Translations under genes and position numbers: made by a program | Notes under the pieces: model-generated | Told to the model about the DNA's origin: nothing | The model's input: the letters and a program-made list of their open reading frames with translations, nothing else | Database searches by the model: none | Virus record (IMG/VR): IMGVR_UViG_3300045988_112031 | Location: 1 to 33,445 of that record | DNA length: 33,445 nucleotides | Strand: one strand, 5' to 3' | DNA from: a virus | Lineage: Duplodnaviria; Heunggongvirae; Uroviricota; Caudoviricetes | Shown here: one piece after another, positions 20,456 through 21,590 of the stretch | How positions within the stretch are numbered: the stretch's first letter is position 1 | Layout: every line of letters starts with the position of its first letter

Positions 20456-20570
20456 TTAGCCCCCTCTTAATTGCTGTGAGTCCTCTCAGGTATGAGGGGA
20501 AATAGGCTCAGGCTTCACGGGCTGGATATATCAACAAAGCACGTAACGGATGATTCCCGTGATCCTGAAA

Positions 20571-20595
20571 TAAAAAAGCCCCGCTATTACGGGGC
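20571..20595 (-). terminator. intrinsic terminator downstream of the HEPN-like moron
   Basis: Minus strand: GCCCCG-taatag-CGGGGC followed by TTTTTT, about 20 nt after the moron stop. Coordinates approximate. Confidence 0.7.
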
Positions 20596-20615
20596 AGTTA
20601 ATAGAATTATAAAGT

Positions 20616-21257
20616 TTAAAAGTTTAAAGGAACCATAAAGCTACCAGGCTCTGCACCAGCTTCTTTATTTATTTCTTTACGGATTACCTCATTAACCTGA
20701 AAAGCCTCATTGTAAACTTTTTCTAAGTTAATTGACGCCTTCATATTATAGTATGTTTTTTCCTCACAAACATATAACCTTATCGGATATGGCCTAGGGT
20801 TGATTGCCTTCCAGTGGGAGATCACAAAATTATAAACTGCAATACCATGACCTTTCATCTTCCCTGCTGTAACATCAATGTTTAGCTGATCTAAATACTC
20901 ATCGAAGTGTTGCAAGGTGTTTCTCACCCTCACGGAATTAATTTCCTTAATTTCAATATCTTTTATTTTTTGTTGAAGGTAATTACTTCGCTCAATATGC
21001 AATCTGAATTGTTCAGGGGATTCTTCCCTAGTCTTATTTTTAGGAACTGCGATTAGTTTCTTGACGTTAGCCGCATCTGAAAGAATGCTATTTATTAATA
21101 TATGAATATTGTAATCAATTTTAAAGTAGTAACCAGCATCAGGAAGTGGTGTCTCATGAAAGAGCTCTTCACAGCGTGTTTTTATCGAATGAGTTAACAA
21201 CCATAATTCGTGCAAATAAATAAAATTAAGTTTCATTTGCTCAAAGGTTTTTGACAT
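20616..21257 (-). CDS. moron-encoded hypothetical protein (213 aa) with HEPN-like R-x4-H motif; candidate abortive-infection / defence toxin
   Basis: Visibly AT-rich ORF between the Q-pR'-tR' region and the lysis genes; AAGGAGAG Shine-Dalgarno; candidate sigma70 promoter upstream; own terminator downstream; no TM segments; central motif ..SVRVRNTLQHFDEY.. (R-N-x3-H). Confidence 0.6.
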   Translation of the reverse strand: MSKTFEQMKLNFIYLHELWLLTHSIKTRCEELFHETPLPDAGYYFKIDYNIHILINSILSDAANVKKLIAVPKNKTREESPEQFRLHIERSNYLQQKIKDIEIKEINSVRVRNTLQHFDEYLDQLNIDVTAGKMKGHGIAVYNFVISHWKAINPRPYPIRLYVCEEKTYYNMKASINLEKVYNEAFQVNEVIRKEINKEAGAEPGSFMVPLNF

Positions 21258-21590
21258 AGCGAACTCTCCTTTTCAATAGTCCGCTTTTATAGCATTTACA
21301 TAAGGGGCCTGTGAATTACTATTCTGTTGCTTACCACACTCTCGCAGTGGCCGCGCTCATGCCTTTGAGACCGTAGTCAGGGGTATCTCATGAATCCCTC
21401 ACCTCTAACCGGAGAACGATTGGCGATCGTTCTGGAGTACCGGCACACCTCTTCTTTATTAACCCTAACCAGTGTGTGTTGCAGTTCGTACCTGCATCTG
21501 GCTCTCATGGAGACTCGGGACCGCATCACGACTGCGGATTTGCCTATCGGCTGCGGTCTATCCGTTTACTGGTGCATTTTCTTACCCTCC

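Follow-up and report, generated by a model that had tools for sequence, protein, structure and literature searches.

The stretch of DNA analysed here (33,445 nucleotides of a Caudoviricetes genome, IMG/VR record IMGVR_UViG_3300045988_112031; referred to as the window) carries on its minus strand an open reading frame (ORF) with an ATG start (20616..21257), which encodes a HEPN-like protein of 213 amino acids (RefSeq WP_021539060.1). The gene forms a small insert in an E. coli prophage, flanked by the gene for the late activator Q on one side and by the lysis genes on the other, and, judging from sequence comparison, is a horizontally acquired cargo gene (moron) in a true cargo slot. We propose, with a probability of about 0.55, that its product represents a new family of solo HEPN-like latent nucleases, which are carried as prophage cargo and would defend the lysogen in a manner analogous to HepS, a protein to which they are not detectably related. 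An earlier reading of this DNA made without database searches (hereafter, the sequence-only reading) had singled out the same gene as a candidate abortive-infection or defence toxin. That a prophage may carry a solo HEPN protein for defence is an established concept, and this particular protein has already been flagged in a published supplementary table (see below).

The proposal is carried primarily by the motif R-N-x3-H at residues 112–117, which lies within the segment SVRVRNTLQHFDEY (residues 108–121). Chance alone would be expected to place a string of the type Rx4-6H in a protein of 213 residues, and a second such string, RCEELFH at residue 28, is unconserved; therefore, it is the conservation of the motif rather than its mere presence that carries weight. 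We compiled an alignment of 123 diverse family members demonstrating 20–70% identity (alignment A2), where R112 and H117 are each retained in 122 sequences, R90 in 121, E/Q116 and D123 in 120 each, D119 in 113, and N113 in 108 (with H in 11 and D in 3 of the others). The least variable positions are R90, R112 and H117 (0.07 bits each), and the helix bearing the motif is the most conserved element of the protein. The family consensus, V-R-N-S-L-E-H-F-D-E-Y-L-D, has the canonical R-[NHD]-x3-H form of HEPN ribonucleases (RNases), in agreement with the conserved Rx4-6H string, usually R-[NHDQ]-x3-H, that characterizes HEPN proteins. This pattern of conservation looks enzyme-like and probably catalytic, suggesting a HEPN-like active site with R112, N113 and H117 at its centre. 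A lack of conservation of the R and H residues among homologues, which the sequence-only reading had named as evidence that would speak against it, was not observed.

The family is widespread and lacks annotation. All 62 members of the WP_021539060.1 cluster at 100% identity are named 'hypothetical protein', and the same is true for every source of the sequence. The first homologue search retrieved 28 clusters, exclusively enterobacterial or metagenomic and none of them named. A profile search against 1.84 billion representatives yielded 245 clusters at E ≤ 1e-3 (172 at E ≤ 1e-10), counted at 50% identity, and a second, word-indexed search with the family alignment added hardly any new members, with zero annotated. 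Almost all members are 200–250 amino acids long and match over their full length, and a genome scan located them in Gamma-, Beta-, Delta- and Epsilonproteobacteria, Bacillota, Actinomycetota, Chloroflexi and Bacteroidota. Most of a gene-bearing 1.1-kb query (window 20400–21500) was found in seven out of 5,426 complete E. coli genomes. The gene itself occurs in one of 50,697 phage records, which belongs to a temperate phage, in no virulent phage, and in none of the plasmids searched. Irregular copies also exist (the P0015 cluster of Enterobacter and loci L022, L031 and L019); they include split or truncated ones, such as fragments of 95–115 amino acids in Enterobacter, some of which come from multi-megabase contigs, and a frameshifted copy in Litchfieldella. 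One Marinobacter genome has two paralogues located 1.2 kb apart.

The structure predicted by AlphaFold2 from a shallow alignment had a predicted local distance difference test score (pLDDT) of 74.8, and the use of 123 sequences gave a pLDDT of 96.7 and a predicted template modelling score of 0.91. The model consists of four helices (residues 11–35, 49–69, 81–97 and 110–130), four strands (140–177) and a closing helix (178–196); the motif is placed at the start of the fourth helix, which is kinked at residue 117. The best structural match of the model is 3jrt, a HEPN protein, at 10–12% identity and with a low Z score, and unrelated four-helix bundles score equally well. A Foldseek search of the PDB with the model returned zero matches, and PDB sequence and profile searches gave none for profile A1 and only weak coiled-coil chance matches for profile A2; therefore, the fold as a whole has no solved relative. 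Taken together, the model makes a HEPN core in the form of a helical bundle plausible. The protein has zero transmembrane segments (the highest 19-residue Kyte-Doolittle mean is 1.23; isoelectric point 7.8), in line with the soluble protein anticipated in the sequence-only reading.

Prophage slots and expression signals

The upstream border of the slot is the gene for the Q antiterminator (21730..22482, minus strand; PF03589, E 1.6e-54), whose product also contains a DnaJ-type zinc-finger region with the CxxCxGxG pattern. The downstream border is a holin gene (20069..20455, minus strand; PF16931, E 3.3e-34), the first gene of the lysis cassette, which comprises holins (PF16931, PF05449), a GH19 endolysin and an Rz-like ORF. 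The terminator scan detected a hairpin 3' of Q (21601..21622, minus strand), to which its position in the lambdoid architecture would assign the role of tR'. As this tR'-like terminator is located after Q, the HEPN-like gene is situated within the Q-dependent late transcript and in the same direction. Between the tR'-like terminator and the cargo lies a late leader (21340..21607, minus strand) that belongs to the phage backbone and not to the moron, as it is 91% identical in a gene-free prophage; the leader was also seen without the ORF in other E. coli genomes (H24–H27).

The extent of the cargo follows from this gene-free prophage, that of E. coli 2017C-4173W12, which matches the window at 21340–21606 and 20312–20502, on both sides of a gap. 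Its leader passes directly into a hairpin with a T6 tract and then into the holin gene, thus representing an empty site. The AT-rich cargo, comprising promoter and gene, is therefore about 740 bp long (approximately 20600..21339; GC content 0.342) and is almost wholly coding. In the E. coli AR_0119 prophage the Q–holin interval is occupied by an unrelated ORF of 189 amino acids, whereas in the temperate phage mEp237 a 98%-identical 1.1-kb block (window 20501–21607) is embedded between a different Q and a different holin. Thus, the location in the Q–lysis cargo slot given by the sequence-only reading holds, since Q and holin flank the gene and the interval is empty or differently filled in other prophages. 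The AT-richness, noted there by eye, is equally clear in numbers: the GC content of the ORF is 0.340 (0.332 at third codon positions), as compared to 0.511 for the whole window, 0.47 for Q and 0.52 for the first holin, and only 0.6% of 642-bp windows are as AT-rich. Deviant composition, presence or absence among related phages, and candidate promoter and terminator signals of its own, the promoter being a prediction, are the features by which lambdoid morons are recognized, and the gene has all of them. Unannotated genes for proteins of about 190 amino acids in the Q–holin interval of other prophages, namely that of AR_0119 (locus L057, 2921–3490; WP_029403922.1) and those of loci L052–L054 (2403–2975; Enterobacter), represent further cargo candidates.

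Upstream of the ORF, a Shine-Dalgarno sequence, AAGGAGAG (21264..21271, minus strand), precedes the ATG codon by 6 nt, as the sequence-only reading had described, and its GGAG core is retained in most relatives. The promoter proposed in that reading, TTCACA-N18-TATAAA, is likewise present. Its candidate −10 hexamer TATAAA (21291–21286) is directly preceded by TG and forms an extended −10 element, TGcTATAAA (21286..21294, minus strand), which is separated by an 18-nt spacer from the candidate −35 element TTCACA (21310..21315, minus strand). A simple consensus promoter scan of the window did not call this promoter, because the −10 hexamer ends in A. In relatives, the −35 position reads ATTCACAG, ATTCCCAG or ATTTCCAG, reflecting partial retention, and the A-A-T-G-n-T-A-n-A columns around the −10 element are invariant in eight relatives from two different insertion sites. 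Since the AATG-n-TATA element and part of the −35 element accompany the gene to another prophage site, there is good comparative evidence for a predicted autonomous promoter.

Downstream of the gene, the terminator scan detected an intrinsic-terminator-like hairpin with a T6 tract, GCCCCG-TAATAG-CGGGGC followed by TTTTTTATTT (20568..20595, minus strand), and compensatory changes preserve this hairpin in the Citrobacter relatives. The sequence-only reading considered the gene self-contained and ascribed the terminator to it. The hairpin and T-run are indeed there, but a near-identical hairpin occurs at the empty site of the gene-free prophage, and the breakpoint of mosaic homology with the AR_0119 prophage falls inside the hairpin, at window position 20582. 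It may thus be a part of the backbone junction rather than of the cargo. As a separate observation, the hairpin terminators compared (20578–20595 and those of loci L057 and L058) may act as recombination joints of the Q–holin slot. Zero significant families were detected in an Rfam scan of the locus, including the late leader, and a tRNA scan of the locus found none.

Among prophages, family members occupy four cargo slots. The Q–holin slot is represented by the window copy and mEp237. In the slot between the Rz/lysis genes and the HNH or small-terminase genes, homologues with 47–70% identity are found in Citrobacter, Enterobacter, Yersinia and another enterobacterial prophage lineage, and the gene is co-directional with the late genes in eleven further prophage loci. 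Two other prophages carry the gene on the opposite strand in the nin-type region, with the replication genes on one side and Q on the other. The fourth slot is the gpQ–gpA hotspot of P2-like prophages, where two Klebsiella-type prophages (L062 and L064) have a family member between the portal gene gpQ and the replication gene gpA, an assignment that holds for these two loci and does not apply to the window copy itself. The terminase, portal and gpA proteins of these prophages, identified by Pfam, are 88–90% identical, whereas their cargo proteins are only 41% identical to each other, and the cargo has a GC content of 0.34–0.35 as compared to 0.54–0.57. This cos-proximal interval holds old and tin in P2 and is a reservoir of anti-phage systems (Rousset et al. 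2022, PMC9122126), which adds support that the sequence-only reading did not have. In E. coli BE2-5 (L068, NZ_CP032986.1 3605904–3613004), the gene resides in a degraded prophage at a yfdR/yfdT/integrase locus, where a part of Q is lost. The retrieved stretch contains no terminase or head genes, and the HEPN-like gene, the lysis cassette and a 112-amino-acid ORF (described below) are intact. The retention of the gene in this degraded prophage hints at its keeping by the host.

Most family members, however, belong to chromosomal loci without phage late genes nearby. Their immediate neighbours are heterogeneous and include helix-turn-helix regulators, HigB, Phd, a KAP NTPase, RhuM, a transposase and housekeeping genes. 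All-against-all BLAST of the neighbours at 34 diverse loci revealed zero recurrent families, and the idea of a conserved partner gene was therefore rejected, in accordance with the single-gene nature put forward in the sequence-only reading. A nucleotidyltransferase antitoxin gene adjacent to the HEPN-like gene was found neither in any of these loci nor in the window.

Known HEPN proteins and the proposed mechanism

The closest functional model for the family, by analogy, is HepS (Nature 2026, PMC13043305), a single HEPN protein from the Salmonella Typhimurium prophage Gifsy-1; its Rx4H motif spans R100–H105, it has no partner gene, and its structures are in the PDB (9OIJ/9OIK). It is made constitutively as an inactive tetramer, is turned on by J, the tail-tip protein of invading siphoviruses, and then cleaves tRNA anticodon loops (PMC13043305). 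Similar to the present family, HepS and its catalogued homologues are single HEPN-motif proteins of less than 250 amino acids, have the Rx4H motif near the middle (R112–H117 here), and are accessory cargo of lambdoid prophages without a conserved partner or inhibitor gene. The homologues of HepS range from Bacillota to Enterobacteriaceae, and Gifsy-1 HepS occupies the same kind of site as the relatives from the nin-type regions. The two families differ in several respects. No HepS chain matches the present family profile at E ≤ 10 among the PDB sequences, which did contain 9OIK, its J tail-tip chain being matched by a control query, and no HepS entry appeared among the fold search results; thus, neither sequence nor fold homology to 9OIJ/9OIK was detected. 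The motif histidine begins the string H-x-I in HepS and H-F-D here, the window gene lies within a late operon, and the J tail-tip trigger, the tetramer and the tRNA anticodon cleavage are established for HepS only. HepS was not found in the LT2 Gifsy-1 record, where the candidate accessory ORFs have no Rx4H at residues 100–105; therefore, the two proteins were not directly compared.

Among recognized HEPN families, PF18736 (pEK499_p136 HEPN) shows a resemblance in the motif. This family came into view through the DefensePredictor supplement, which contains three sequences named 'HEPN family nuclease' by NCBI whose homologues all carry PF18736. The hhalign comparison of the present family with 30 PF18736 members pairs VRNSLEHFD with lRhSVAHFd in register (probability 26–34%, P 4e-4 to 7.5e-4). 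The score of 29.6 is well above those of 40 column shuffles (12.9 ± 2.3, maximum 17.8) and of the reversed alignment (15.9), although the alignment spans only 11 columns and stays below a confident level. Both families consist of small proteins with helices before the motif, which is located at a comparable position and has the form R-[NH]-S-[LV]-x-H-F-D. Judging from its sequence, PF18736 may likewise have strands and then a last helix after the motif. The PF18736 proteins are shorter (about 160 amino acids) and, in the validated DS-28 system of DefensePredictor, work with a second gene, and neither the window protein nor any of the 123 members matches the Pfam model above its threshold. The comparison thus supports a motif of the same residues in the same order in both families (R, N/H, S, L/V, H, F, D) rather than family membership.

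The best structural match of the model, 3jrt (Vpc_cass2), was described by Anantharaman et al. 2013 as an 'Integron cassette HEPN' with a conserved Rx4-6H; it is also a small solo HEPN protein on a mobile element, having 166 residues as compared to 213 here. The Tha proteins of Staphylococcus aureus prophages are a tail-activated HEPN system (PMC11087260) and represent another prophage-encoded HEPN RNase in defence, and their motif, RNSIMH, agrees in type with the RNSLEH of the present family's consensus. However, Tha-1 has 301 amino acids, an extra N-terminal region and a cognate inhibitor, Ith, and hhalign against the single Tha-1 sequence gave only an off-register, meaningless match. HepT-MntA pairs (7ae2, 5yep) are set apart by their adjacent nucleotidyltransferase antitoxin, which none of the 34 loci of the present family has, by the lack of a profile match and by the extra 80-residue C-terminal part found here.

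A published survey of 3,000 E. coli strains with DefensePredictor (Science 2026, PMC13092281) lists exactly WP_021539060.1 among its uncharacterized clusters in Table S10, with a mean log-odds score of 7.44 (minimum 5.63, maximum 8.68; stringent cut-off 4), the label 'Putative novel defense gene' and no HHblits or Foldseek match to known defence proteins (PMC13092281). This listing is a second line of support beyond the sequence-only reading. The DefensePredictor tables of tested units contain neither the motif nor the accession, so that the protein was not among the systems tested, and literature searches by accession retrieved nothing in main texts.

If the parallel with HepS, Tha and further HEPN effectors of defence holds, the protein would be a latent RNase that is triggered by a phage product and causes the infection to abort. 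Transcription from the gene's own extended −10 promoter in the lysogen would let inactive protein accumulate. A product of a superinfecting phage would then switch the protein on, leading to metal-independent cleavage of RNA (tRNA, rRNA or mRNA), an arrest of translation and the abortion of the infection, by which the clonal population and the resident prophage may be protected. The interpretation of the gene as a defence candidate, as advanced by the sequence-only reading, is supported in that each of its computable tests came out in its favour; the abortive-infection phenotype and toxicity are still putative.

Contrary evidence and alternative readings

Several results weigh against the proposed latent defence nuclease. 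Pfam, including its HEPN models, gave zero matches to the 123 diverse members even at E ≤ 10, NCBIfam gave zero matches to the window protein, and PADLOC, run on the window protein and the 123 members, produced only weak matches to Cas13a and CasR (~1e-3). With the hhalign results, this leaves the family without a significant profile match to any recognized HEPN family; the HEPN-type R-N-x3-H motif noted in the sequence-only reading stands, and a place in a HEPN family is not supported by these profiles. The comparison with 3jrt concerns the overall fold only. In non-phage loci, known defence models match only 3–4 of 125 immediate neighbours, and an enrichment of known defence genes beside these members was dropped as weak. 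The DefensePredictor model uses GC content and neighbour features and has an overall validation rate of 45% (PMC13092281); as low GC and gene neighbourhood were also the cues of the sequence-only reading, the published score is not independent of them. In one enterobacterial prophage lineage (loci L006–L009), a homologue with 56% identity (8001–8657) directly follows a gene (7638–7931) for the Acb2/Tad1-hairpin domain, which belongs to a family of anti-CBASS and anti-Thoeris sponges. As a side observation, a gene for a SIR2_2 / STAND-NTPase protein in L007 and L009 is located at the edge of the retrieved locus. Finally, the co-directional position in the late operon implies heavy transcription during the lytic cycle of the carrier itself, and such expression fits a toxin poorly if the toxin is not latent. 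Because the lambdoid copies sit in late operons, a carrier phage would over-express the protein during lytic growth; it could bear this only with a protein that, like HepS, is inactive by default, or where the late expression is itself useful.

The latter option leads to a first, rather unlikely alternative, namely that the protein is a late-phase phage enzyme made from the Q-antiterminated transcript and serving the lytic growth of its own phage, by degrading host or early phage RNA or by late exclusion of co-infecting phages, instead of protecting the lysogen. In both the window and mEp237 the gene is located 3' of a tR'-like terminator and co-directionally with the late genes, and the orientation is the same in the eleven loci of the Rz–terminase slot. 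In lambdoid phages, the Q-modified polymerase reads through terminators and would do so at the terminator of this gene. However, the gene lies on the strand opposite to the phage operon in the nin-type regions, its copies in the P2 hotspot sit where lysogen-expressed exclusion genes lie, and most members are chromosomal without phage late genes nearby. The conserved candidate promoter of the gene and its absence from all virulent phage records also argue against a late-phase role.

According to a second alternative, which we likewise regard as improbable, the gene encodes an accessory protein of another kind, where the conserved cluster of R, H, D and E residues would carry out another type of chemistry, as in a metal-dependent enzyme based on a four-helix bundle, for example, or would function in binding, and the resemblance to HEPN would be convergent. 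This would account for the empty HEPN profile searches and for the fold without a solved relative; moreover, neither the acidic stripe (E/Q116, D119, E120 and D123) nor the invariant R90 is standard for HEPN proteins. On the other hand, the form of the motif, R-[NHD]-x3-H, is canonical, its in-register alignment with PF18736 extends to the trailing F-D, and the best structural match is a HEPN protein. No informative match was found in Pfam, NCBIfam, PHROGs (zero matches to the window protein) or PADLOC, in agreement with the sequence-only reading, which could not assign the protein to any named family; the confident homology to a non-defence family that would have told against that reading was sought in Pfam, NCBIfam, PHROGs and solved structures and was absent from all of them.

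A related and similarly doubtful possibility is that the protein is not a classical HEPN at all and represents a new effector fold, in which a helical bundle, a four-stranded sheet and a closing helix would be combined with a catalytic centre of R90, R112, H117 and D123. The gene would then be a one-gene immune module hopping among at least four prophage slots and, in lambdoid phages, wired into the late operon. If so, the lambdoid carrier phage would need a way to tolerate or exploit a burst of its own toxin in lytic growth.

It is highly unlikely that the gene encodes the toxin of an addiction module whose antitoxin, perhaps a small RNA or an ORF of very few codons, is unrecognized; such a toxin would stabilize the prophage rather than protect against phages. 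HEPN toxins are common in toxin-antitoxin pairs (PMC3710099), some neighbours of family members elsewhere are toxin-antitoxin genes (HigB, Phd), and split or truncated copies exist. However, an adjacent conserved ORF was not found among the 34 loci, there is no Rfam match or conserved non-coding partner (the upstream leader is phage backbone and exists without the gene), and a cargo of only about 740 bp is nearly all coding. Least probable is an anti-defence protein used by the phage against host immunity, as suggested by the homologues directly after the Acb2/Tad1-hairpin gene in the Rz–terminase slot of one enterobacterial prophage lineage, given the enzyme-like invariant residues, the many non-phage chromosomal copies in several phyla, the absence from virulent phages and the presence in the P2 defence hotspot.

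If the proposal of a latent HEPN-like defence nuclease is confirmed, the few immune nucleases of the HEPN type that consist of one protein would be joined by a widespread family, which current annotation and defence-finding libraries all fail to recognize. Its placement in the late transcript sharpens a question already posed by HepS and Tha, namely how a toxin for abortive infection can be carried by a prophage whose own lytic cycle it does not kill. Since the 740-bp unit includes a candidate promoter and is easy to clone and mutate, the hypothesis is directly testable.

Other features of the window

Upstream of Q, the gene at 22496–23491 (minus strand) encodes a DUF968 protein whose C-terminus is HNH-like. 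A weak pR' candidate was identified at 21661–21698 (minus strand), consisting of TTGCAT, a 17-nt spacer and TAGGAT; it is a poor match to the consensus, is located about 40 bp upstream of the tR'-like hairpin and overlaps the short inverted repeat GTTAGGATTTTCCTAAC. Starting from this candidate, a short leader RNA terminated after about 65 nt would suit the lambdoid pattern.

The ORF at 18240–18578 (plus strand; RefSeq WP_000594256.1) encodes a protein of 112 amino acids with zero Pfam matches and has a GC content of 0.35. It occupies the other cargo slot of lambdoid phages, which separates the Rz-type lysis genes from the terminase, on the strand opposite to the late genes. This ORF was considered as a partner of the HEPN-like gene and rejected, since it is missing in mEp237. 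A third AT-rich island (approximately 5200–6300; GC 0.33–0.39) includes an ORF of 176 amino acids (5446–5976, minus strand) among the tail and baseplate genes, which may be cargo or a fast-evolving tail-fibre accessory gene.

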